64,000 nt of DNA from Escherichia coli (lineage in GTDB: Bacteria > Pseudomonadota > Gammaproteobacteria > Enterobacterales > Enterobacteriaceae): assembly GCF_048403405.1 (NCBI RefSeq), contig NZ_CP183129.1, one strand, 5' to 3'. Below are positions 3,501-42,039 of the stretch, piece after piece. The notes under the pieces were generated by a model that saw nothing but the letters and a program-made list of their open reading frames with translations, made no database searches and had not been told where the DNA came from. A program made the position numbers and the translations under genes. Each line of letters starts with the position of its first letter. Positions within the stretch are counted from its first letter, which is position 1.

Positions 3501-3800
3501 TCAGACCAGTGCTTTTAGTTCTTCCTGCATATATGTTGAAAAGTATTCAGGATTTTTAATCACAATGCGTTCACCAGACTCCATTTTTTTTGCCCATCCA
3601 ACCATTTTTTCCGTGAACCCCGGGTTCCAGCCTTCCTGGTCAGCTCGCGCCGTAATATCGGCGGCGCTCGCGGGTACTCCCAGTTCTTTTAAATATTTAA
3701 AGATTCCCTTCGCCGTGCTTTCATTCATCGAACTTGGTGTTGGTGCTGATACATCCATGGCACCAATGAAATCCAGGGCTTTATCTATTACAGCAGGCAT
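3501..3800 (-). CDS. yoaC: DUF1889 family protein
   Basis: Track ORF 3501..3860; internal ATG at 3800 (MPAVIDKALDF…) has an AAGGA ribosome-binding site, the 3860 start has none; gives 99 aa. Confidence 0.8.
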   Translation of the reverse strand: MPAVIDKALDFIGAMDVSAPTPSSMNESTAKGIFKYLKELGVPASAADITARADQEGWNPGFTEKMVGWAKKMESGERIVIKNPEYFSTYMQEELKALV

Positions 3801-4221
3801 ATTCTTATCCTTAAAATTAACCATGTTATCGATAAGGCTATATATGACCTTAATTTGCATCTAATATCAAAGGGATTATAACGATATGGCACGAGTTAAC
3901 CTGTTGACATTCAGGTGTTTTAAAGGTAGCAGTTCATGGTGTGTTATCCAGTAAGAGGGAGAAAATTGACGGTCAGTTCTCACGCTATAACCAAATTGTT
4001 CAGCTAAGAAAGAAAACCAGAGATGCTAATCGAAGGGCGAACACAACGGCATGGTTATGTTTATTTATATAGTTAGCTTTATAGCTAAAATTGAAATTAT
4101 AAAAATAAATAATGAATTAGCAGGAGCATCAACAGTAATATCTTAATCTCTGGTCGATTTATGTAAAACCGACCAGTATTATCGATAAATTATCGTCTGA
4201 CTTATTTTGCTTCGATAAAGC

Positions 4222-19416: not shown

Positions 19417-20442
19417 TCAGGAATGTAGCGCTGGATGCGCGACAAAAGGTGTTTTCTGTTTGCGTTTTTTCTCCTGATACATCGCGATATCGGCAGCATG
19501 CAGGGCACTGTCTGCATCGGTCGTTTCAGGATCGACTTCTACTATGCCAAGACTGGCACCGGGATAATACAAATCAACATCACCTAAGTGATATTCTCCG
19601 CATATTTGCTGCTGAATACGTTCTCGCAGAGACGAAATATCCGCATTCTCGTTGTTCAGTGAAACAACCAAAAACTCATCACCGCCGAGACGACCAATAA
19701 CTTCGCCATTTTGCTGGAGCGTATTAAGGCGCTCGCCAACCTGAATGAGGAACAAATCACCACTATTATGACCAAAACGATCGTTGATTAATTTGAAGTT
19801 ATCCAGATCGATAAACGCGATCATTATCTTATGGTTAAGATGTCGGGCGAGAGAAAACAGCGTCGTCAGGTTTTCAAAAATCGCCCGCCGATTCGGTAGC
19901 CCGGTTAACGAGTCGGTATACGATTGCGCAATCAGCGCAGCATTGGCTTCGCGCAGCTGTTCAACCAGTGCCTCTTTTTGAATATATTGTGCAATCAGTC
20001 CGGCGAATAACTGTAAAACCTGTTCCGCGCGTTCACTCCACTGGCGCTTCTCACTACTGGCGGCGCAAAGCGTGCCATAGAATGATCCATCCGGTAAGTG
20101 AATTGGCGTGCTCAGAAATGTGGTGATGCCAAGATTGCGTGCCGCAATACAGTCGCCCCAACGGTCAGGGACTTCATCGCTGAAAAAGCAGTTTTCATCA
20201 ATGGCGCGTTTGCATAACGAGTAATCCCACGAGACGGTAAAATTCTCCGGGATGTGCATTTTCTGGCTGTTACGGGCAAACATAATATGCTGCAGGCGCG
20301 CTTCGACATCCACTTTGGTCAGGTAGGTTGATTCCATATCAGTGACCATTTCCAGCATCTCCAGAAGCTGTCGGACCAGACTTTCCAGTGACTGTTCTTT
20401 GGCAAGGGATTGCGAGACGCGGGCGATAATCTGATCTGACAC
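19417..20442 (-). CDS. dgcP: diguanylate cyclase (GAF-GGDEF)
   Basis: Start taken at GTG 20442 (VSDQIIARVSQSLAKEQ…, 341 aa); intact GGDEF motif RLGGDEFLVV. Confidence 0.88.
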   Translation of the reverse strand: MSDQIIARVSQSLAKEQSLESLVRQLLEMLEMVTDMESTYLTKVDVEARLQHIMFARNSQKMHIPENFTVSWDYSLCKRAIDENCFFSDEVPDRWGDCIAARNLGITTFLSTPIHLPDGSFYGTLCAASSEKRQWSERAEQVLQLFAGLIAQYIQKEALVEQLREANAALIAQSYTDSLTGLPNRRAIFENLTTLFSLARHLNHKIMIAFIDLDNFKLINDRFGHNSGDLFLIQVGERLNTLQQNGEVIGRLGGDEFLVVSLNNENADISSLRERIQQQICGEYHLGDVDLYYPGASLGIVEVDPETTDADSALHAADIAMYQEKKRKQKTPFVAHPALHS

Positions 20443-22484: not shown

Positions 22485-22580
22485 ATGCTTCTCATTGTTA
22501 CAAACGAGGCTGTACCTTACCGTTTTTATTGTTATGTTGAATCAAGCTAAAATGACAAATTATCGCTAAATTCGGACAAA

Positions 22581-23402
22581 ATGATGCACAGGTTGAATCT
22601 CAATGGCTATGAACCCGACCGACACCATGAAGCCGCGGTCGCATTTTGTATTCACGCCGGAACGGATGAGTTAACCAGTCCTGTACATCAGCACCGCAAA
22701 GGACAGCTGATACTGGCGCTACATGGTGCAATTACCTGTACGGTGGAAAATGCTTTGTGGATGGTGCCACCGCAATATGCGGTTTGGATACCGGGCGGAG
22801 TGGAACATAGCAATCAAGTGACAGCTAACGCTGAACTCTGTTTTCTGTTTATCGAACCCAGCGCAGTGACAATGCCGACAACCTGTTGCACATTGAAAAT
22901 ATCGCCCTTATGCCGGGAATTAATTTTAACCCTGGCAAACAGGACGTCGACTCAGCGTGCTGAGCCGATGACCCGCAGATTAATTCAGGTCCTGTTTGAT
23001 GAACTCCCTCAGCAGCCACAACAACAGCTGCACCTACCCGTTTCTTCTCATCCTAAAATTCGCGCGATGGTGGAGATGATGGCGAAAGAGCCCGTCGAGT
23101 GGGGGTCATTGGGGCAATGGGCTCGCTTTTTTGCGATGAGTGAACGCAATCTTGCCCGACTGATAGTGAAAGAGACGGGGTTGAGTTTTCGCCAGTGGCG
23201 TCAGCAGTTACAGCTGATTATGGCGCTTCAGGGATTAGTGAAAGGCGATACTGTACAGAAAGTTGCTCATACGCTGGGGTATGATTCAACAACGGCCTTT
23301 ATTACTATGTTTAAGAAAGGCCTGGGGCAAACGCCAGGCCGATATATTGCGGGATTAACTACTGTTTCCCCACAATCAGCGAAACCAGACCCGCGGCAAT
23401 AA
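22581..23402 (+). CDS. nimR: AraC-family transcriptional regulator, known as yeaM
   Basis: 273-aa ORF; cupin-like N-terminus and C-terminal AraC HTH region. Confidence 0.88.
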
Positions 23403-23805
23403 GCGGGCCAACCGGTACGCCGCGAAACAGCGCCACGCCCAAAACAGTGCCCACCAGCAGCCCGGCGACCAGTTGCGGCTGGCTGCCCATTAACGTCACG
23501 CCGCGCCCACCTAGCCAGGAGACAATAACGCCTACTGCAATTGCCACCAGCGATTTCCAGTTCAGAAACGAGTGAATCAGGGTTGAGGGCGGTAGCGTCC
23601 CGCTGGCGATGGGGGCCATAACGCCAATCGTCAGAATGATTATCCCGATACTTAGCCCCTGTTTTTCAATCCACGGGAAAAAGGTGCTTAACGGTGTGAC
23701 GCGGACAATGATTAACACCAGAATTGAAACGGCGACAGTGGTGTTATGACTGATAAAGCCCAGCGCAGCTAACCCGAGCAGGATCAGCAAAGTGACATCA
23801 AACAT
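23359..23805 (-). CDS. yeaL: UPF0756 inner-membrane protein
   Basis: 148-aa hydrophobic ORF; convergent 3' overlap of 44 bp with nimR. Confidence 0.88.
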
Positions 23806-23974
23806 CGTGGTTTCCTTGCCAAAAAATAATAAGCCTGCTTACTTTACGCTTGCTGCAGGAAGGAAGTAGAAAATCTTTACGTTTTTTGCATAAAAAATCA
23901 GGCGAACTGTCATCAAACTGCAATTTGTGCACGCTAACAATAACGTGAAAACAGCTATCTCCCGGGGGCATACT

Positions 23975-24079
23975 ATGAACGATCAAATGTTCGTCGAGAC
24001 ACTGATTATCACGTCATCGTTTTTTGCCATTGCTGTTGTGCTGGTTTTGTCCGTTCTTCTTATCGAACGGACAGGCTAG
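23975..24079 (+). CDS. yoaI: small membrane protein (34 aa)
   Basis: ATG at 23975: [34 protein letters not shown]; below ORF-track cutoff. Confidence 0.7.
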
Positions 24080-24583
24080 TTACGCAGTGCGGCGGAAATT
24101 GACCAGTTCTGGTTGCGCAATGCGCAAATAATCCGCGGTTTTCAAAATAACGGATTTATCCAGCATGCCTGCATTGAAGGCGATTTCATCAAATCGTTCG
24201 AAGAGTAGGGGATCGGCAACCAGTTTGAGTTTTGGATGGAAGCTGAAAGGGGGGATCGCGCCGAAGACACAGCCTGTGAGTTCATCGACTTCCGCCGGGC
24301 TGGCCAACGAAGCGCGTAATCCGCCTATATGGCTGGCGAGTTGGCTCAGATCGGCCTGTTGATCGGCAGCGAGGATCGCCAGAACATGTTGATTTACACC
24401 ATTGCCTTTGACTTTACATACCAGTGCCTTAGCCCCCTGGCCTAAAGCGGTGCCACGAATTTCTGACACCGCTTCACATTTACCTACCGCTTCATGGGTA
24501 ACGACGCGGAAGTCAGCACCTTCTTGTGATAATAAAGCGATTAACCGCTGATGCGTCATGCTTCCTTTAGCCATTTCAGTCAT
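24080..24583 (-). CDS. yeaK: YbaK/ProX-family aminoacyl-tRNA deacylase
   Basis: 167-aa ORF MTEMAKGSMTHQRLIALLSQEGADFRVVTHEAVGKCEAV…. Confidence 0.88.
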   Translation of the reverse strand: MTEMAKGSMTHQRLIALLSQEGADFRVVTHEAVGKCEAVSEIRGTALGQGAKALVCKVKGNGVNQHVLAILAADQQADLSQLASHIGGLRASLASPAEVDELTGCVFGAIPPFSFHPKLKLVADPLLFERFDEIAFNAGMLDKSVILKTADYLRIAQPELVNFRRTA

Positions 24584-24625
24584 TTCATGCTCCTGAGATT
24601 ACAAGCAAACAACCACAGAAGGTTA

Positions 24626-25976
24626 TCATGAACGGCTGTTTTTGTTCTGCTTATTGACATATAAACGCTCATCGGAAGCTTTATACGCATCATGTAACGT
24701 ATCGTTTTCTTTCATCGCGTAAATACCGGAAGAGAAGCCGATCTCTTTCTGCGGCGCGATATGTTGCAGACGTTTTTCGATACGTTCAGGCAGTTGTGCT
24801 GCAATTTGCGGCGTCGAATCGACTAGAATGATGCAGAATTCATCGCCACCGAGTCGGATGGCATAATCACTTTTACGAATCGACTGTTTAATCGCCTGAG
24901 CTAATAACGTAATCGCTAAATCCCCCTCCTGATGACCGAGGGTGTCATTTATTTGCTTTAACTTGTCCATGTCAATTGCAATAAACATCACCGAAGAACC
25001 GGATTGCACCAGTTTTTGCAACCGCTGCTCCAGTTCAGGGGTTAAAATTTTGCGATTATACAGTCCTGTCATCGCATCACTAATATTTTCTCGCGACACA
25101 TTTTGGTATAAACGGAAGTGCATCCGCACCATATTCAGCAAAATTAACGCCGTCAAAATCCAGAACAGAACGCTTTTCCACGAAGACGTGATAAAGTAAA
25201 GAATATCAATGGATAACGAGACACGAATGCCGCCCGGTAAGTCATGGACGTAACTGACATACTGGAACAGATTATCTTCGCTCTGGTTGATGATAATGTC
25301 GCGCCCCGAATCGGTATCGGTTAGCGTGACATTGAGAAAACGCCAGAGGAGAGGGCGGTCATGAGTGTAAAAGATATTCCGCAGATTGTTTTTGTTAATA
25401 TCCAGCAGCACAATCCCTTTTAGCTGCCCTGCGACATATACCGGCGTCAGCAAACTCATCACGTTCTGTTTAGTACGCTGATCCTGGTAAATGCTCGATA
25501 AAACGGTACGCCCGGTAAATACCTTTTCAATATCTTTGCGATCGATGCCAATACTTCCTGACTGCAGGAAAGACCAGTTATTCATCGCAAAGTACTCAAC
25601 ATTAACCGGCTCATAAAAATAGACATAGCGGTCATTGAGATCGAGATAATAGTGAAATTTCTCGTCGGCCATCCCAAGACCTGAACCGTAATCATCCTGG
25701 TGGCGGTTGCCTTCCACTGCCTGATCAAAAGCGGGTAATAGTGCTGCAGCTTCCACAATTGTGTCGCAGTCAGTGGATGCGGTTTGTAGTGTGCCGCGTA
25801 AGCCAGGGTATTTATGGGCAGTCAGGTTTAAGCCATGGGTATTATTTGCAGACTCAAAAGCCTCGCAGATGGTGCGCCGCTGTTCTGGCGACAAGTTCAA
25901 AAATAAGGAAGGAAGATGTCAGCACAATGACACTTGCGGCGATAAAATGCCGGAGCATTCTATGGTGCAATTTCAT
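24626..25976 (-). pseudogene. dgcJ: diguanylate cyclase DgcJ, N-terminal segment out of frame with the body
   Basis: ATG at 25976 encodes the TM N-terminus MKLHHRMLRHFIAASVIVLTSSFLIFELV…, which stops at 25854; the 424-aa body (…RxxD I-site RKSD, GGDEF RLGGDEFCIIL) is in the +1 frame from 25900. Confidence 0.75.
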
Positions 25977-26156
25977 GATAAATGGCACTCCTTCGGTTAG
26001 TGAAACGAGAAAACCAGATAAAGTTCGATTGCGGCCTGGCACAGGGGCGCTAATTATACTCATCTCTGCGCCGCTGGGGAGGGGAAATTTAGGGGTAATA
26101 GTAATAAATTGTATGCAAAAGCCACGCAAAAAGCATGGCTCTGAATATTTTTGCAC

Positions 26157-27632
26157 TTAAATATGATGAATAATCACTTTGTTGCCCCCCTCGCTTTTCG
26201 CTTCGCGTAAGGCTTTATCTGCTTCCGTCATGACAAGCGAGATATTACGTGTGTCACCCGTTGAAAAAACCGTGCCAATACTGATGGTCATTTGCTCAGG
26301 AACATCATATCTGTTACTAAAGCCGGTCAGGAGTTCGACATTTTTACGCATACGTTCCGCAATGATTTTTGCCTGGGCACTATTGAGTTCGGTAAATAGC
26401 AAGCCAAACACCTCACCCTCCAGTCGCGCTAAAATATCATCGGGGCGGATGCTTTGCTGGATAATATCGACAATTGAAACCAGCACTTTATCACCCACAC
26501 GATGTCCCCATTGGGCATTGATGCGTTTGAACTGATTAATATCAACCAGCATGACACAGAAGTCCTTAACAACAGGTCGCGACAATAATGACTCTACGCT
26601 GTTGAAAAAGTAGCGCCGATTATAAATATTGGTCAGCACATCATGAACTGCCAGTTTGCTGGAGAGTTGCAGTTCCTGAAAAATGTTATAAATCAGAAAA
26701 GACACAACAAACAGTTTACTGGAGACTTCAATCCCGCGACTGATATACCAGATGGTGTAATTATACTCATCCAGAGTTAGTAGAAGTAAGTTGCAGCATA
26801 GCGATGCCAGACATAATAATGCTATTAACGGCCATAGTTCGCTGGCTAATCGTGTACGCATGATAATAAAGAACAGTAAAAATGCCCACAGACAAACCAA
26901 TGTTTTTGTATAGTTGATTCCCCAGGTCGCAGTATGGTTGTCCGGACAGTAATCGACGACATACAAAGAATAGTCAGCGTTATAACTGCTCAGATTGTGT
27001 GCCAGAAGGGGAAAAACTAAAAAAGGAATCAGCGCCAGTAACAGAATGCCAGTTTTTTTCTTATTGTTGTCAAGGATGTTGTCTTTCCCATAACAAAAGA
27101 GCGCCAGCGAGGTTAAACAAATGAAACTGAGTTGGCGGAAAATATAGAAAATAGAAACATCATTCGACTTTGTCTGGATCAGTGTACTGCCGTTGATTGG
27201 TTTATGGATAATTACAATGGTTTCAACTAAATAGATAAGGCCACTTAAAAATGCAAGGCTTAAAATGAGTGTTGGTAAAATTTGTTTGTTAGTGAAATAC
27301 TTCATTAACATGAAAAGAAAAATGACGGCGTTAAGGAAAAACAAAGCCACAACAACCATCAGGTAATTCATCTGTGGGATGAGTTTTACATTCGTGTTTT
27401 CGTTATATAAGGTAGTAATGCAAAATAAAATTAACGTCAGCAATAAGCTGAAAATAAAAAAGCCTTGAGCTTTTAATTTTTGTGTACCCATAGAAGCCAT
27501 AAAAAGGAGAGCAATGTGAGTGCTGGATTTTATTGATGGCAGAGATATATAGTTTTGACCAGGATCAATTTTCGTTAACGATAAAAAATATTTAAAGAAT
27601 AACCCCAGGGAAACACGTGTTGACCGAATCAT
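26157..27632 (-). CDS. cdgI: degenerate GGDEF-domain membrane protein (c-di-GMP binding)
   Basis: 491-aa ORF (yeaI); multiple N-terminal TM helices; GGDEF replaced by EGEVF with RxxD (RPDD) retained; strongly AT-rich coding sequence. Confidence 0.88.
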   Translation of the reverse strand: MIRSTRVSLGLFFKYFLSLTKIDPGQNYISLPSIKSSTHIALLFMASMGTQKLKAQGFFIFSLLLTLILFCITTLYNENTNVKLIPQMNYLMVVVALFFLNAVIFLFMLMKYFTNKQILPTLILSLAFLSGLIYLVETIVIIHKPINGSTLIQTKSNDVSIFYIFRQLSFICLTSLALFCYGKDNILDNNKKKTGILLLALIPFLVFPLLAHNLSSYNADYSLYVVDYCPDNHTATWGINYTKTLVCLWAFLLFFIIMRTRLASELWPLIALLCLASLCCNLLLLTLDEYNYTIWYISRGIEVSSKLFVVSFLIYNIFQELQLSSKLAVHDVLTNIYNRRYFFNSVESLLSRPVVKDFCVMLVDINQFKRINAQWGHRVGDKVLVSIVDIIQQSIRPDDILARLEGEVFGLLFTELNSAQAKIIAERMRKNVELLTGFSNRYDVPEQMTISIGTVFSTGDTRNISLVMTEADKALREAKSEGGNKVIIHHI

Positions 27633-27741
27633 TTTTCCGAATGATTGTTTTCTGGAACTAAATTGTGTAAAGGTTATGCTGTCATATTTAAAGCGATTGT
27701 AAGCTAATGTATGTAATAAATGAGATAATTTACAGTGAGCT

Positions 27742-27774
27742 AAAAATCAGCCAGGCGATAATGACCCGGCTGAT
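27742..27774 (-). terminator. intrinsic terminator downstream of yeaH
   Basis: Stem ATCAGCC / GGCTGAT with A5 on the plus side (U-tract on minus), 5 bp past the yeaH stop. Confidence 0.65.
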
Positions 27775-27778
27775 AGTT

Positions 27779-29074
<1,296 letters not shown>

Positions 29075-29174
29075 CTACATTTGCCAACTGTATGCTACGC
29101 CTGTGTTGCCGCTTCTCTGGCCCACGGTTCGCTGTCGTTGTAGGCCCGGTAGCATGTGTACCGGGCCAGGGTTG

Positions 29175-31109
29175 TTAAGACGATTTACGTACGCGCAAAT
29201 ACCATTCGCACAGTAAACGCACCTGTTTACGGGTGTAGCCTTTTTCCATCATACGGTCGACAAAATCGTCGTGTTTCTTTTGCTCGTCGGTTGACGTTTT
29301 GGCGTTAAACGAAATAACCGGCAACAGCTCCTCGGTATTGGAGAACATTTTCTTCTCAATAACCGTGCGCAGTTTTTCATAGCTGGTCCAGTTCGGATTG
29401 CGTCCGCTGTTATTCGCTCTGGCGCGCAGTACGAAGTTAACAATCTCGTTGCGGAAATCTTTTGGATTACTGATCCCCGCCGGTTTCTCGATTTTCTCCA
29501 GCTCGGCGTTAAGAGACTCGCGATCAAACAGCTGCCCGGTATCCGGATCGCGATACTCCTGATCCTGAATCCAGAAATCCGCGTAGGTAACATAACGGTC
29601 GAAAATGTTTTGCCCATATTCGGAATAGGATTCAAGGTAGGCCGTCTGGATCTCTTTGCCGATAAACTCGGCATATTTCGGGATCAGATAACCTTTCAGG
29701 AACTCCAGATAGCGTTCTGCCTGCTCTTGCGGGAACTGCTCGCGCTCGATCTGCTGTTCCAGGACGTAGAACAGATGGACCGGGTTTGCCGCCACTTCTA
29801 CATGATCGAAGTTGAACACGCGGGAGAGGATCTTAAACGCAAAACGCGTCGACAGACCGTTCATCCCTTCATCGACACCGGCGTAGTCACGATATTCCTG
29901 ATACGACTTGGCTTTGGGATCTGTGTCTTTCAGACTTTCGCCATCATAAACCCGCATCTTTGAATAAATGCTGGAGTTTTCTGGCTCTTTAAGGCGCGAA
30001 AGAATGGAAAAACGTGACAGCGTTTCCAGCGTGCCAGGGGCGCAGGGGGCGTGAGTCAATTCACTGTGATTAAGCAATTTCTCGTAGATTTTGATCTCTT
30101 CGGAAATGCGCAAGCAATACGGCACCTTCACGATGTAAACACGATCAAGGAAGGCTTCGTTGTTTTTGTTATTACGGAAAGTGACCCATTCGGATTCGTT
30201 CGAGTGGGCGAGAATAATCCCGTTGAACGGCAGGGCGGAGATACCTTCCGTCCCGTTGTAGTTACCTTCCTGAGTGGCGGTTAGCAAGGGATGCAGCACT
30301 TTAATCGGTGCTTTAAACATCTCAACGAATTCCATGATCCCCTGGTTGGCGCGGCACAGTGCACCGGAATAGCCGTAGGCGTCCGGGTCATTCTGCGCGT
30401 AGTGTTCGAGTTTACGAATATCGACTTTCCCAACCAGCGCGGAGATGTCCTGGTTGTTCTCATCACCGGGTTCCGTTTTGGCGATAGCAATTTGTTGCAG
30501 AATTGACGGCCAGACCTTCACTACCCGGAACTTAGTGATATCGCCACCAAATTCATGCAGGCGTTTTGCCGCCCACGGCGACATGATGGTGCCGAGATAA
30601 CGGCGAGGAATGCCATACTCTTTTTCCAGAATCTGCGCATCTTCCTGCGGATTGAAAAGACAGAACGGATGATCGTTGACCGGGCTACGCTCACCGTTGG
30701 CGCTCAATACATAAATCGGTACGAGCTGCATTAATGATTTCAGTCGCTCAGCAAGCGATGATTTACCCCCACCCACAGGCCCCAGCAGATACAGGATTTG
30801 TTTCTTCTCTTCCAGCCCCTGAGCCGCGTGTTTCAGATAAGAGACAATCTGTTCAATCGCGTCTTCCATGCCGTAAAACTCTTCAAACGCCGGATAACGT
30901 GCAATGACCCGGTTAGAAAAGAGTCGAGAAAGTCTGGGTTCCTGGGCTGTATCGACCATGACAGGCTCACCGATAGCCATCAATAGCCGCTCAGCCGCGT
31001 TGGCATAAGCACTGCGATCTTGCCGACAAGTGGTAAGAAACTCCTGCAGTGTGAACTCTTCGTCCTTGGCAGCTTCATATCGCTGGCGATAGTGATCGAA
31101 TATATTCAT
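29175..31109 (-). CDS. yeaG: PrkA-family serine protein kinase
   Basis: 644-aa ORF; Walker A LLGPVGGGKSSLAERLK. Confidence 0.93.
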   Translation of the reverse strand: MNIFDHYRQRYEAAKDEEFTLQEFLTTCRQDRSAYANAAERLLMAIGEPVMVDTAQEPRLSRLFSNRVIARYPAFEEFYGMEDAIEQIVSYLKHAAQGLEEKKQILYLLGPVGGGKSSLAERLKSLMQLVPIYVLSANGERSPVNDHPFCLFNPQEDAQILEKEYGIPRRYLGTIMSPWAAKRLHEFGGDITKFRVVKVWPSILQQIAIAKTEPGDENNQDISALVGKVDIRKLEHYAQNDPDAYGYSGALCRANQGIMEFVEMFKAPIKVLHPLLTATQEGNYNGTEGISALPFNGIILAHSNESEWVTFRNNKNNEAFLDRVYIVKVPYCLRISEEIKIYEKLLNHSELTHAPCAPGTLETLSRFSILSRLKEPENSSIYSKMRVYDGESLKDTDPKAKSYQEYRDYAGVDEGMNGLSTRFAFKILSRVFNFDHVEVAANPVHLFYVLEQQIEREQFPQEQAERYLEFLKGYLIPKYAEFIGKEIQTAYLESYSEYGQNIFDRYVTYADFWIQDQEYRDPDTGQLFDRESLNAELEKIEKPAGISNPKDFRNEIVNFVLRARANNSGRNPNWTSYEKLRTVIEKKMFSNTEELLPVISFNAKTSTDEQKKHDDFVDRMMEKGYTRKQVRLLCEWYLRVRKSS

Positions 31110-39186: not shown

Positions 39187-40230
39187 ATGAAAAATTCAAA
39201 AGCAATATTGCAGGTGCCGGGCACAATGAAAATTATTTCAGCAGAAATACCTGTGCCTAAAGAAGATGAAGTTTTGATTAAAGTGGAATATGTCGGTATT
39301 TGTGGTTCAGATGTACATGGTTTTGAATCAGGCCCGTTTATTCCGCCTAAAGACCCAAATCAAGAAATTGGCTTGGGTCATGAATGCGCCGGGACGGTTG
39401 TGGCTGTGGGAAGCCGTGTGCGCAAATTTAAAGCGGGGGATCGGGTAAATATCGAACCTGGCGTTCCTTGCGGTCACTGTCGTTACTGTCTGGAAGGCAA
39501 ATATAACATCTGCCCGGACGTTGATTTTATGGCGACACAACCTAACTACCGCGGCGCATTAACGCACTATCTGTGTCATCCGGAGAGCTTTACTTACAAA
39601 CTGCCCGACAATATGGACATGATGGAAGGGGCGCTGGTGGAGCCTGCTGCAGTCGGGATGCATGCCGCGATGCTGGCAGATGTTAAACCGGGTAAGAAGA
39701 TAATTATTCTGGGAGCGGGTTGTATTGGTTTGATGACGTTGCAAGCGTGCAAATGCCTGGGAGCTACGGATATTGCCGTCGTTGATGTACTGGATAAACG
39801 TCTGACAATGGCGGAACAGCTCGGCGCGACAGTGGTTATTAACGGTGCAAAAGAAGACACTATTGCACGCTGTCAGCAATTTACCGAAGAAATGGGCGCA
39901 GATATTGTTTTCGAAACAGCGGGTTCTGCGGTCACCGTTAAACAGGCACCTTATCTGGTAATGCGCGGCGGTAAAATTATGATTGTTGGTACTGTACCGG
40001 GCGATTCGGCAATCAATTTCCTCAAAATCAATCGCGAAGTCACTATTCAGACAGTATTCCGCTATGCCAATCGTTATCCGGTCACGATTGAAGCTATTTC
40101 CTCAGGGCGATTCGATGTGAAATCGATGGTGACACATATTTACGATTATCAGGATGTACAACAGGCATTTGAAGAGTCGGTTAACAACAAACGCGACATT
40201 ATTAAAGGCGTTATTAAAATTAGCGATTAA
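39187..40230 (+). CDS. ydjJ: zinc-dependent polyol dehydrogenase (MDR family)
   Basis: 347-aa ORF; GHECAGTVVAVG and CGHCRYC zinc motifs; Rossmann GAGCIG. Confidence 0.9.
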   Translation: MKNSKAILQVPGTMKIISAEIPVPKEDEVLIKVEYVGICGSDVHGFESGPFIPPKDPNQEIGLGHECAGTVVAVGSRVRKFKAGDRVNIEPGVPCGHCRYCLEGKYNICPDVDFMATQPNYRGALTHYLCHPESFTYKLPDNMDMMEGALVEPAAVGMHAAMLADVKPGKKIIILGAGCIGLMTLQACKCLGATDIAVVDVLDKRLTMAEQLGATVVINGAKEDTIARCQQFTEEMGADIVFETAGSAVTVKQAPYLVMRGGKIMIVGTVPGDSAINFLKINREVTIQTVFRYANRYPVTIEAISSGRFDVKSMVTHIYDYQDVQQAFEESVNNKRDIIKGVIKISD

Positions 40231-40250
40231 TTAATACGGGAGAACAGAAT

Positions 40251-41087
40251 ATGCTCGCAGATATCAGATATTGGGAAAACGATGCCACAAATAAACATTA
40301 TGCAATTGCCCATTTTAACGTATGGAATGCAGAAATGTTGATGGGCGTTATCGACGCAGCCGAAGAAGCGAAATCACCGGTTATTATTTCTTTTGGTACA
40401 GGTTTTGTCGGGAACACCTCATTTGAAGATTTCTCTCACATGATGGTATCAATGGCAAAAAAAGCAACGGTGCCGGTAATAACTCATTGGGATCATGGTC
40501 GGAGTATGGAAATTATTCATAACGCCTGGACTCATGGTATGAATTCATTAATGCGTGATGCTTCCGCATTTGATTTCGAAGAAAATATTCGTTTAACCAA
40601 AGAGGCTGTTGATTTCTTCCATCCGCTGGGTATTCCGGTAGAGGCAGAATTAGGGCATGTCGGTAATGAAACCGTTTATGAAGAAGCGCTGGCGGGCTAT
40701 CACTATACCGATCCTGACCAGGCGGCTGAATTTGTTGAACGTACGGGCTGTGACTCATTGGCTGTCGCCATCGGCAACCAACATGGGGTTTATACGTCAG
40801 AGCCACAATTGAATTTTGAGGTCGTCAAACGCGTACGCGATGCCGTTTCTGTTCCGCTGGTTTTGCACGGCGCATCGGGGATCAGTGATACCGACATTAA
40901 AACTGCAATTTCGTTGGGTATCGCGAAAATCAACATTCATACGGAGCTCTGTCAGGCCGCAATGGTAGCAGTGAAAGAAAACCAGGATCAGCCTTTCCTG
41001 CATTTAGAACGTGAAGTACGTAAAGCTGTAAAAGAACGGGCATTGGAAAAAATTAAACTGTTCGGTTCTGATGGCAAAGCGGAATAA
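40251..41087 (+). CDS. ydjI: class II (metal-dependent) ketose-bisphosphate aldolase
   Basis: 278-aa ORF, FbaA/KbaY-like (…HWDHGRSM…, …LHGASGISD…). Confidence 0.9.
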   Translation: MLADIRYWENDATNKHYAIAHFNVWNAEMLMGVIDAAEEAKSPVIISFGTGFVGNTSFEDFSHMMVSMAKKATVPVITHWDHGRSMEIIHNAWTHGMNSLMRDASAFDFEENIRLTKEAVDFFHPLGIPVEAELGHVGNETVYEEALAGYHYTDPDQAAEFVERTGCDSLAVAIGNQHGVYTSEPQLNFEVVKRVRDAVSVPLVLHGASGISDTDIKTAISLGIAKINIHTELCQAAMVAVKENQDQPFLHLEREVRKAVKERALEKIKLFGSDGKAE

Positions 41088-41091
41088 TGAT

Positions 41092-42039
41092 ATGGATAAT
41101 CTCGACGTTATTTGTATAGGTGCCGCTATTGTTGATATTCCATTGCAACCGGTCAGTAAAAATATCTTTGATGTGGATTCTTATCCTCTTGAAAGAATCG
41201 CAATGACCACCGGGGGTGATGCAATAAATGAAGCAACAATTATTTCTCGTCTGGGCCATCGCACAGCATTAATGAGTCGTATTGGTAAAGATGCCGCCGG
41301 GCAATTTATTCTCGACCATTGCCGCAAAGAGAATATTGATATTCAAAGCCTGAAGCAGGACGTCAGCATAGATACCTCAATTAACGTTGGACTGGTGACG
41401 GAGGATGGCGAGCGGACGTTTGTCACAAACTGTAACGGCAGTCTGTGGAAATTGAATATTGACGATGTTGATTTTTCGCGGTTTTCTCAGGCGAAATTAT
41501 TATCTCTGGCCAGTATTTTCAACAGTCCTCTATTGGATGGTAAAGCGCTAACAGAAATTTTTACGCAAGCTAAAGCCCGGCAGATGATTATCTGTGCCGA
41601 TATGATCAAACCGCGGTTGAATGAAACGCTGGATGATATTTGCGAAGCATTGAGTTATGTCGATTATCTGTTTCCTAATTATGCCGAGGCAAAATTACTC
41701 ACCGGGAAAGAGACACTGGAGGAAATTGCTGACTGCTTTCTTGCGTGCGGCGTAAAAACGGTGGTGATTAAAACGGGTAAAGACGGCTGCTTTATCAAGC
41801 GTGGTGACATGACGATGAAGGTGCCGGCGGTCGCAGGAATAACCGCCATCGACACCATTGGCGCGGGCGATAACTTTGCTTCAGGTTTTATTGCGGCACT
41901 GTTAGAAGGCAAAAATCTGCGTGAATGCGCACGCTTTGCCAATGCAACGGCGGCTATCTCGGTTCTAAGCGTCGGTGCCTCCACCGGCGTAAAAAACAGA
42001 AAGCTGGTCGAACAATTGCTGGAAGAATACGAAGGATAA
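41092..42039 (+). CDS. ydjH: PfkB-family sugar kinase
   Basis: Start taken at MDNLDVICIGAAIVD… (315 aa); PfkB signature GAGDNFASGF. Confidence 0.88.
   Translation: MDNLDVICIGAAIVDIPLQPVSKNIFDVDSYPLERIAMTTGGDAINEATIISRLGHRTALMSRIGKDAAGQFILDHCRKENIDIQSLKQDVSIDTSINVGLVTEDGERTFVTNCNGSLWKLNIDDVDFSRFSQAKLLSLASIFNSPLLDGKALTEIFTQAKARQMIICADMIKPRLNETLDDICEALSYVDYLFPNYAEAKLLTGKETLEEIADCFLACGVKTVVIKTGKDGCFIKRGDMTMKVPAVAGITAIDTIGAGDNFASGFIAALLEGKNLRECARFANATAAISVLSVGASTGVKNRKLVEQLLEEYEG

Follow-up and report, generated by a model that had tools for sequence, protein, structure and literature searches.

The cdgI (yeaI) gene of Escherichia coli encodes a protein with a GGDEF domain whose catalytic signature has degenerated, and its coding sequence is strongly AT-rich. 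Two questions are raised by this locus: whether the protein makes c-di-GMP or responds to it, and how the gene came by its composition and its altered active site. Both were addressed in a stretch of 64 kb of E. coli DNA (the window), whose cdgI is identical to RefSeq cdgI of strain TUM14771 (Table 1). The dead active site, c-di-GMP binding and H-NS occupancy of cdgI are already published for K-12, and for genome annotation little is gained, the main facts on the gene being in the literature. New with respect to that literature are the evolutionary history of cdgI, the AT-richness of the family as a whole, the start codon and the deletion in the neighboring dgcJ. The comparison offers a clear-cut case in nature of a cyclase turned receptor, and canonical sister genes in Citrobacter permit direct reversion and ancestral-state experiments.

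Table 1. Features of the cdgI locus and its surroundings (positions refer to the window).
Feature	Position	Strand	Basis or remark
cdgI (yeaI) CDS as annotated	26157..27632	minus	491-aa ORF; Pfam MASE4 + GGDEF
Probable real cdgI CDS, 444 aa, from Met48 (MGTQK...)	26157..27491	minus	start conservation, dN/dS
Annotated N-terminal 47 codons of cdgI, probably 5′ leader	27492..27632	minus	dN/dS, start/stop comparison
MASE4 integral-membrane sensor domain, aa 88-319	26676..27371	minus	Pfam PF17158, E = 2.2e-48
GGDEF domain, aa 328-485	26178..26651	minus	Pfam PF00990, E = 9.1e-45; 45.1% GC
Degenerate active-site motif EGEVF, aa 405-409	26406..26420	minus	aligned with GGEEF of 6zxm, 3ign
I-site RPDD, aa 396-399	26436..26447	minus	five residues upstream of EGEVF
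INAQWGH, Asp of N-D-x-x-G-H motif replaced by Ala (D373A)	26502..26522	minus	alignment
Y476R (ALYEAK to ALREAK) and R/K483G (basic residue of G-R/K-N to Gly483)	26184..26207	minus	alignment
AT-rich core, K-12 promoter island PI 1868534_304	27203..27506	minus	30.9% GC; PMC3661553 Table 1
yeaH-cdgI spacer	27633..27778	minus	33.6% GC
Terminator-like hairpin in spacer	27774-27746	minus	predicted
Sigma70-like site in spacer (one)	27671-27644	minus	consensus scan, no proof of function
dgcJ pseudogene	24626..25976	minus	alignment with TUM14771 and MG1655; Pfam
dgcP (yeaP), GAF-GGDEF, intact motif (RLGGDEFLVV)	19417..20442	minus	ORF; K-12 gene order

Start codon, domains and active-site residues

The start annotated in RefSeq probably lies 47 codons too early, as judged from comparison among orthologues. 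Met48 is the only start kept in all Escherichia and Citrobacter cdgI orthologues. From this residue on, dN/dS amounts to 0.03–0.11, a range found in both domains across Escherichia; for the annotated 47-codon N-terminus it is 0.5–1.5. E. whittamii lacks the annotated start codon, and the leader is interrupted by in-frame stops in representatives of four further Escherichia species, E. albertii and E. fergusonii among them. The MASE4 match covers positions 5–237 of the 239 positions of its profile, and about seven hydrophobic segments lie between amino acids 57 and 287, as expected of a MASE4 member. The GGDEF match spans the full profile (positions 1–161 of 161). Against solved structures it yields 43 GGDEF matches at E ≤ 1e-10, and it aligns to solved diguanylate cyclases with E = 5e-22.

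A sequence-only reading of the locus had proposed that the active-site motif of CdgI is degenerate while the inhibitory RxxD site (I-site) is kept, and alignment with the solved cyclases bears this out. The first glycine of GG(D/E)EF is replaced by glutamate and the fourth residue by valine. In active enzymes, the first glycine and the fourth-position glutamate are required for GTP binding and metal coordination. Position 405 is occupied by E or D in all eight Escherichia-type sequences of the alignment and by G in all ten canonical relatives. The CdgI segment SIRPDD-ILARL-EGEVF lines up with the RxxD-x5-GGEEF arrangement of diguanylate cyclases of solved structure, and all 18 aligned sequences have R396 and D399; outside these 18, HPDD occurs in Escherichia sp. 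MOD1-EC7003, and RxxD is thus not absolutely fixed. The aspartate of the N-D motif is changed to A, N or T in six of the eight Escherichia-type sequences and retained in three Escherichia lineages, as well as in the Citrobacter orthologues and the outgroups, which have ND. Position 476 carries R, S or Q in the Escherichia-type sequences (n = 8) and Y in 10/10 canonical ones, a fixed difference, and position 483, as read from the alignment, carries glycine in place of R/K. An intact GG(D/E)EF motif is absent from CdgI, and the other substrate- or metal-associated residues inspected (the Asp of N-D, the basic residue of G-R/K-N and the Tyr of ALYEAK) are all replaced. A published table gives the yeaI motif as KNAHDREGEVF (Spurbeck 2012, PMC3484386).

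CdgI as receptor or cyclase

CdgI is most probably an inner-membrane MASE4-GGDEF receptor or regulator for c-di-GMP, which has lost cyclase chemistry and kept the RxxD site. The purified GGDEF domain of K-12 CdgI binds c-di-GMP (Sarenko et al. 2017, PMC5635695 Fig. S4). The same study reports that this domain contacts several other GGDEF domains and is toxic when overproduced, and that CdgI is undetectable in standard growth conditions (PMC5635695); elsewhere the protein has been termed ‘catalytically non-functional’ (PMC10459773). The GGDEF domains of the window and K-12 are identical in amino-acid sequence (dN = 0.000), and what is published for K-12 on the degenerate active site, the intact I-site, c-di-GMP binding and the H-NS-bound promoter island should hold here as well. 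K-12 CdgI (YeaI, b1785) is the same gene in the same position with the same neighbors; overall identity is 98%, with a few substitutions in the N-terminus and MASE4, and the loci differ in that the downstream dgcJ of the window has been put out of function by a 140-bp deletion unique to it. The earlier suggestion of an effector rather than a cyclase is thus supported by the degenerate site, the retained I-site and c-di-GMP binding by the K-12 domain. When expressed, CdgI would probably titrate or inhibit other cyclases through heteromeric GGDEF contacts, and these contacts may be modulated by c-di-GMP, a scheme to which two-hybrid data point.

Degenerate-GGDEF receptors that bind c-di-GMP via the I-site are exemplified by Caulobacter PopA and Pseudomonas PelD, the outputs of which are known. 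CdgI resembles both in its GGDEF fold, dead active site and retained RxxD, whereas PopA and PelD possess other N-terminal modules and belong to unrelated lineages. The MASE4-GGDEF architecture itself is shared with DgcT (YcdT) and DgcX (~40% identity), active cyclases of E. coli (PMC10459773). DgcT has the RPDD I-site context of CdgI (SIRPDDLLARVGGEEF), but in DgcT and DgcX four elements that CdgI has lost are conserved: GGEEF, the N-D motif, ALYEAK and G-R/K-N.

It is unlikely that CdgI, despite EGEVF, retains diguanylate cyclase function, perhaps at a low level or under certain conditions. In the papers that cite it (PMC6824119, PMC3484386), Sanchez-Torres 2011 is invoked for yeaI raising cellular c-di-GMP and encoding a ‘verified’ cyclase. 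The biofilm defect of a CFT073 yeaI mutant in no-salt LB is complemented by the cyclase WspR (PMC3484386), and the product name ‘sensor domain-containing diguanylate cyclase’ persists in RefSeq for most genomes. However, WspR failed to complement the same mutant in glycerol medium (PMC3484386), the yeaI phenotypes could be indirect, via contacts with other cyclases (PMC5635695), and later work regards CdgI as inactive (PMC5635695, PMC10459773). Cyclase activity of the EGEVF variant, which would contradict a receptor role, is claimed in the older literature as relayed by citing papers, whereas later ones treat the protein as inactive. Not only are Gly at the first and Glu at the fourth motif position both replaced, but three further conserved residues are changed (D373A, Y476R, R/K483G), and the motif has drifted among Escherichia species, which is unexpected for a catalytic loop under selection.

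The history of the locus is consistent with CdgI being a receptor derived from a cyclase. Orthologues at the yeaH-X-dgcJ site of Citrobacter sp. R56, Awk 4 and NCU1 show 57–62% identity to CdgI, equal length and 37–38% GC, but unlike CdgI they carry canonical GGEEF and INDRWGH and are, to judge from these motifs, presumably active cyclases. Since they keep GGEEF, the active site was probably lost at the base of Escherichia. Within that genus the motif reads EGEVF, DGEVF, EGDVF, EGEEF or EGNVF, with RxxD almost always kept, and a metagenomic homologue of 64% identity has EGKRF. In a relative-rate comparison with seven outgroups, the MASE4 distance is 0.884 in both lineages, whereas for the GGDEF domain it is 0.816 (degenerate lineage) versus 0.708 (GGEEF lineage). 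A single loss of catalysis would have preceded the divergence of the Escherichia species; thereafter the GGDEF domain alone would have changed faster, until cdgI came back under purifying selection.

Base composition, H-NS and the origin of cdgI

The claim that cdgI is visibly richer in A and T than its neighbors and contains long A/T runs was confirmed by a windowed GC calculation. The gene has 39.1% GC, against 49.9% for the whole window, and falls outside the local average, in the lowest 1% of 1476-bp windows (mean 49.9%, sd 3.7%). No other of the 47 window ORFs of at least 150 amino acids (mean 50.8%) has a GC content as low. Of the 500-bp windows of the 64 kb ranked by GC, the bottom eight, and 18 of the bottom 25, are located at 26600–27900, including the minimum of 32%. 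A/T runs of at least 6 nt number 39 in cdgI versus 16.7 ± 8.0 per 1476 bp, the longest, of 16 and 13 nt, being located at 27581 and 27422, respectively. The MASE4 part has 37.4% GC; the GGDEF part, the spacer and the AT-rich core are given in Table 1. Both amino-acid usage and synonymous sites contribute to the deficit: GC1/GC2/GC3 are 0.42/0.32/0.44 (ORF mean GC3 0.537), FYMINK residues account for 34% versus 23% and GARP residues for 15% versus 27%, and TTA makes up 32% of Leu codons versus 13%.

Two explanations of this composition had been put forward, H-NS silencing and foreign origin. As to the former, the GC content of cdgI is well below that of its surroundings, as is typical of H-NS-bound xenogeneic DNA, and a 304-bp promoter island inside yeaI is H-NS-bound in all ChIP-chip studies compared (Panyukov & Ozoline 2013, PMC3661553). 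Binding is thus documented and silencing may follow from it; no report of yeaI derepression in an hns mutant was found in the literature. The high-affinity H-NS motif TCGATAAATT is unenriched at up to two mismatches (2 matches in 1.6 kb versus 3.0 ± 1.6). A simple sigma70 scan returned 5 sites versus 5.7 ± 2.6 in dinucleotide-preserving shuffles, which keep the AT-richness; the published promoter-island call used another algorithm. PI 1868534_304 was placed in the window through NC_000913.3 coordinates plus a genome-version offset, which we take to be 1977 bp. This mapping was cross-checked with the SrsR peak at 1,868,366, between yeaH and cdgI (PMC9181523). The spacer region between these genes is bound by RstA (PMC6824119) and SrsR (PMC9181523), and an Rfam scan of 24000–29200 on both strands revealed no RNA family. 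AT-richness would make the promoter and 5′ half of cdgI an H-NS-bound, poorly transcribed region, and poor transcription would fit a gene that is harmful when over-expressed.

Foreign origin can be maintained in part. All but two of 5426 complete E. coli genomes carry the gene (5424), and yeaH and dgcJ flank it in each of the Escherichia species sampled as well as in three species of Citrobacter. It is absent at the same site from Salmonella and C. freundii, and the 640-bp yeaH-dgcJ gap of Salmonella holds no cdgI remnant. This absence, the occurrence of MASE4-GGDEF relatives in plasmid-like and prophage-adjacent contexts, and the flagging of the H-NS-bound yeaI by the GIST, Nakamura and Lawrence compositional methods (PMC3661553) all speak for an origin outside. 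That AT-richness marks a recent horizontal acquisition into the strain or species is nevertheless very unlikely. IslandViewer and Price et al. leave yeaI unflagged (PMC3661553), and a repeat search around cdgI detected no terminal repeats, insertion footprints or mobile-element remnants; neither patchy distribution nor discordant divergence is seen. Since cdgI belongs to the E. coli core genome, keeps its position throughout the genus and equals the flanking yeaH in dS (0.55–0.74 versus 0.53–0.69 in the same genome pairs), any transfer would be ancient. Low GC has persisted and is not a mark of fresh import.

In line with such persistence, cdgI orthologues all have 35–39% GC versus 47–52% in their flanks, and three other MASE4-GGDEF genes lie 8–17 GC points below theirs; dgcT has 38.6% GC and a DgcX-like gene 29%. 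AT-richness thus appears to be a long-standing trait of the MASE4-GGDEF lineage, every relative examined being AT-rich, whether catalytically active or not. More tentatively, low GC might be a selected trait that has kept a toxic membrane signaling module under H-NS control for long evolutionary periods. Escherichia cdgI would be a domesticated offshoot of a mobile, AT-rich family, converted once, at the base of the genus, from c-di-GMP synthesis to c-di-GMP sensing and the restraint of other cyclases; we regard this extended scheme as possible but doubtful. The switch itself is suggested by an acceleration confined to the GGDEF domain, the continued drifting of a dead catalytic loop and the retention of the I-site.

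Slightly less probable still than a recent acquisition is the idea that cdgI is silent and decaying, on its way to becoming a pseudogene, with mutational decay as the cause of its AT-richness. The active site is dead, the protein is undetectable in standard conditions (PMC5635695), the neighboring dgcJ has repeatedly been struck by IS1 and deletions, and dN/dS of cdgI is 10–20 times that of yeaH and yeaG. Yet in both domains this ratio is far below 1, an ORF of ~444 amino acids is intact in all species sampled, the cdgI region is found in nearly all complete genomes, and the I-site is conserved. GC is equally low in active relatives and GGEEF orthologues, and regulation of cdgI by SrsR (PMC9181523) and RstA (PMC6824119) has been reported. 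Finally, it is hardly credible that low GC is merely a by-product of coding for a hydrophobic membrane domain: the deficit is greatest at codon position 1 (0.42 versus ~0.58), CdgI has a high content of L, I, F, N and Y, and within the gene AT-richness is highest in the MASE4 half, but GC3 is low too (0.435) with TTA over-used for Leu, low GC extends to the soluble GGDEF half (45%) and to the non-coding spacer (34%), and nimT, another membrane-protein gene in the window, has 53%.

The neighboring dgcJ and dgcP genes

A local c-di-GMP gene cluster had been proposed, and three GGDEF genes indeed occur within 8.2 kb. However, only cdgI and dgcJ are adjacent, whereas dgcP is separated from the end of dgcJ by 4.2 kb and seven unrelated genes. 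The adjacent pair was considered as a product of recent tandem duplication and rejected as such, with only ~31% identity over 130 amino acids and differing sensor domains. The expected disruption of dgcJ was traced to a frameshifting deletion of 140 bp, located at 25884/25885 and flanked by direct repeats of 9 bp (CTGGCGACA). Its junction, represented by a 41-bp probe, was found in 0 of 5,426 complete E. coli genomes. The deletion leaves a 40-amino-acid N-terminal fragment and an out-of-frame GAPES1-GGDEF remainder, and the strain of this window is without functional DgcJ.

Domain architecture and active site of CdgI

The window carries E. coli chromosomal genes in the order dgcP ... nimT-nimR-yeaL-yoaI-yeaK-dgcJ-cdgI-yeaH-yeaG-mipA, and the complete genome closest to it is that of strain TUM14771. 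A hydropathy scan places about seven membrane segments within residues 57-287 of CdgI. The 47 N-terminal codons of the 491-codon frame (window 27492-27632) evolve like non-coding DNA (dN/dS 0.5-1.5), and in five Escherichia species representatives this stretch has lost its start codon or contains stops. The sole conserved start is Met48 (ATG at 27491), and 447 aa is the existing annotated length of many RefSeq orthologues.

GGDEF-domain genes of the window and the domains of CdgI
Feature	Position	Strand	Remarks
cdgI (yeaI)	26157-27632	minus	exact 491-aa ORF; sequence identical to TUM14771 cdgI
MASE4 domain of CdgI	aa 88-319		Pfam, E = 2e-48
GGDEF domain of CdgI	aa 328-485		Pfam, E = 9e-45; C-terminal of MASE4
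dgcJ	24626-25976	minus	inactivated by 140-bp frameshifting deletion at 25884/25885
dgcP	19417-20442		GGDEF intact

The sequence-only reading had proposed that CdgI combines a degenerate EGEVF active site with a retained RPDD motif and serves as a c-di-GMP effector. Alignment to solved cyclases confirms both motifs, EGEVF falling on GGEEF and RPDD on RxxD, with the canonical spacing of five residues (SIRPDD-ILARL-EGEVF). Three more conserved GGDEF-domain positions are altered: INDxxGH reads INAQWGH (a change tabulated by Spurbeck et al., PMC3484386), ALYEAK reads ALREAK, and G-R/K-N has glycine in place of its basic residue. For K-12, Sarenko et al. 2017 (PMC5635695) described the degenerate active site and intact I-site, demonstrated c-di-GMP binding by the purified GGDEF domain and its strong two-hybrid interactions with several other such domains, found overproduction toxic and the protein undetectable under standard conditions, and mentioned repression by CsrA. 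Cimdins-Ahne et al. 2023 (PMC10459773) list CdgI as catalytically non-functional and group it with DgcT and DgcX in the MASE4-GGDEF family. Because dN between the GGDEF domains of the window and K-12 proteins is 0.000, the binding result should transfer to the protein encoded here; together with the dead active site and the kept I-site, it supports the effector reading. CdgI would thus be a c-di-GMP-responsive regulator, perhaps sequestering other cyclases. Later papers cite Sanchez-Torres et al. 2011 as showing cyclase activity of YeaI, and WspR complemented a CFT073 yeaI mutant in one medium but failed to do so in a second (PMC3484386); such conflicting phenotypes could be explained by indirect effects via partner cyclases.

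All three Citrobacter orthologues retain GGEEF and INDRWGH. In all Escherichia-type sequences the first glycine of the motif is replaced by E or D and the remaining loop varies by lineage: EGEVF in E. coli, E. fergusonii, and E. whittamii, DGEVF in the E69 lineage, EGDVF in the SCPM-O-B-8794 lineage, EGEEF in one clade, and EGNVF in E. albertii. A 64%-identical metagenomic homologue from an unknown organism carries EGKRF. RxxD is invariant across the 18-sequence alignment. With a dN/dS of 0.03-0.11 in both domains, cdgI is under purifying selection, yet its evolutionary rate is 10-20 times that of yeaH and yeaG. In a relative-rate comparison with seven outgroup proteins, the MASE4 distance is 0.884 in both lineages, whereas for the GGDEF domain the degenerate lineage is more distant by 0.11 substitutions per site (0.816 versus 0.708), a GGDEF-only excess that is suggestive only, since the distances are simple Poisson ones. 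The picture is of catalysis lost once, before Escherichia diversified, of rapid change in the GGDEF domain alone after that, and of constraint that later returned while the I-site was held. A 98%-identical orthologue in Escherichia sp. MOD1-EC7003 (L004:6010-7344) has HPDD in place of RPDD and INTQWGH in place of INAQWGH; it may be a natural allele without c-di-GMP binding.

Base composition and H-NS occupancy

The proposed AT-richness of cdgI was borne out by windowed GC calculation: the gene has 39.1% GC versus 49.9% for the window, about 2.9 sd under the mean of all 1476-bp windows (lowest 1%), and ranks lowest among the 47 ORFs that reach 150 aa. The eight 500-bp windows poorest in GC across the 64 kb, and 18 of the poorest 25, fall within 26600-27900 (minimum 32%), and A/T runs of at least 6 nt are 2.3 times as frequent in cdgI as in the window on average. 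The deficit is uneven (upstream spacer 33.6%, MASE4 part 37.4%, GGDEF part 45.1% GC) and has two sources, amino-acid usage (GC1 0.42 versus ~0.58; FYMINK 34% versus 23%; GARP 15% versus 27%) and synonymous choice (GC3 0.435 versus 0.537; TTA 32% versus 13% of leucine codons). Further low-GC patches lie at 3650-3900 (500-bp GC as low as 34.6% near 3751), at 39187-42039 (three consecutive ORFs with GC3 0.40-0.45), and at ~43750.

Within yeaI, Panyukov and Ozoline 2013 (PMC3661553) described a 304-bp 'promoter island', one of 78 genome-wide, that is H-NS-bound in every ChIP-chip study compared. Three compositional methods (GIST, Nakamura, Lawrence) mark it as foreign; IslandViewer and Price do not. 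This island maps to nt 127-430 of the coding sequence (window 27203-27506), the AT-rich core with 30.9% GC. The mapping rests on what we take to be a 1977-bp offset between genome versions. It was cross-checked with the reported SrsR peak between yeaH and cdgI (PMC9181523). The suggestion of H-NS silencing is thereby supported as to occupancy, which is published for K-12; H-NS on the AT-rich 5′ half would help to keep the gene off. A literature search found no report of cdgI derepression in hns mutants. EMSA shows RstA binding to the yeaI promoter region, with repression in EHEC inferred (PMC6824119), and SrsR activates cdgI in stationary phase (PMC9181523). The underlying observations are correct and the effector and H-NS readings are supported, yet both were already in the literature for the same gene, to which the comparative details are modest additions.

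Distribution and origin of cdgI

A foreign origin had also been suggested, and it stands as an ancient event only. Recent import is contradicted by the presence of the 4.1-kb cdgI region in 5424 of 5426 complete E. coli genomes, by synteny, and by the lack of any repeats found flanking the gene. Among 100,044 species-representative genomes, orthologues are confined to Escherichia lineages and three species of Citrobacter, with that of E. fergusonii found by separate look-up, and all lie in the yeaH-dgcJ interval. Within Escherichia, dS of cdgI (0.55-0.74) matches that of yeaH (0.53-0.69) for the same genome pairs; therefore, cdgI travelled with its neighbours. The interval is 152 bp in C. freundii and 640 bp in Salmonella, where it holds no cdgI remnant. 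This Salmonella enterica gap (L015:4361-5000) has 38.6% GC and, on the opposite strand, a called ORF of 65 aa with no similarity to cdgI; dgcP is also missing from the corresponding place.

The orthologues all have 35-39% GC versus 47-52% in their flanks, the active paralogue dgcT has 38.6%, and three further MASE4-GGDEF genes lie 8-17 points under their surroundings; low GC is therefore a stable family trait, independent of catalytic state. GC falls to 29-30% in two canonical relatives (L020:5001-6332 and L021:5001-6332), one of them in plasmid-like surroundings (ParM/StbA, ParE) and the other adjoining prophage tail-fibre genes in E. coli; movement of the family on mobile elements is suggested.

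The neighbouring GGDEF genes

In the proposed local c-di-GMP cluster only cdgI and dgcJ are adjacent. dgcJ lies 180 bp downstream of cdgI on the same strand, and three of the 19 K-12 GGDEF-domain genes (total from PMC5635695) fall within 8.2 kb, with a chance of ~1-4% by a rough Poisson estimate; dgcP is separated from dgcJ by 4.2 kb that hold seven unrelated genes. The sensor domains differ (MASE4 in cdgI, GAPES1 in dgcJ, GAF in dgcP), and the genes are not recent duplicates; cdgI and dgcJ share only ~31% identity over 130 aa. When E. coli is set against the three Citrobacter species, identity is 61-63% for DgcJ, 98% for YeaG, and 94-96% for YeaH; cdgI and dgcJ change fast in a neighbourhood that is otherwise highly conserved.

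That dgcJ is disrupted was confirmed against TUM14771 and MG1655, both of which possess the missing 140 bp. Direct repeats of 9 bp (CTGGCGACA) bound the stretch, consistent with replication slippage, and its loss shifts the frame after residue 30 to leave a 40-aa fragment. A 41-bp probe across the junction found no match in the 5,426 complete E. coli genomes, even in TUM14771, which is otherwise almost identical. In laboratory strains dgcJ has also been struck by IS1 and deletions, and strain CT01 carries an IS1 insertion in the gene. Within the dgcJ remnant, position 25664 has a plus-strand G versus T in TUM14771 and MG1655, the sole substitution relative to TUM14771 across the 7.1 kb compared (window 22500-29600).
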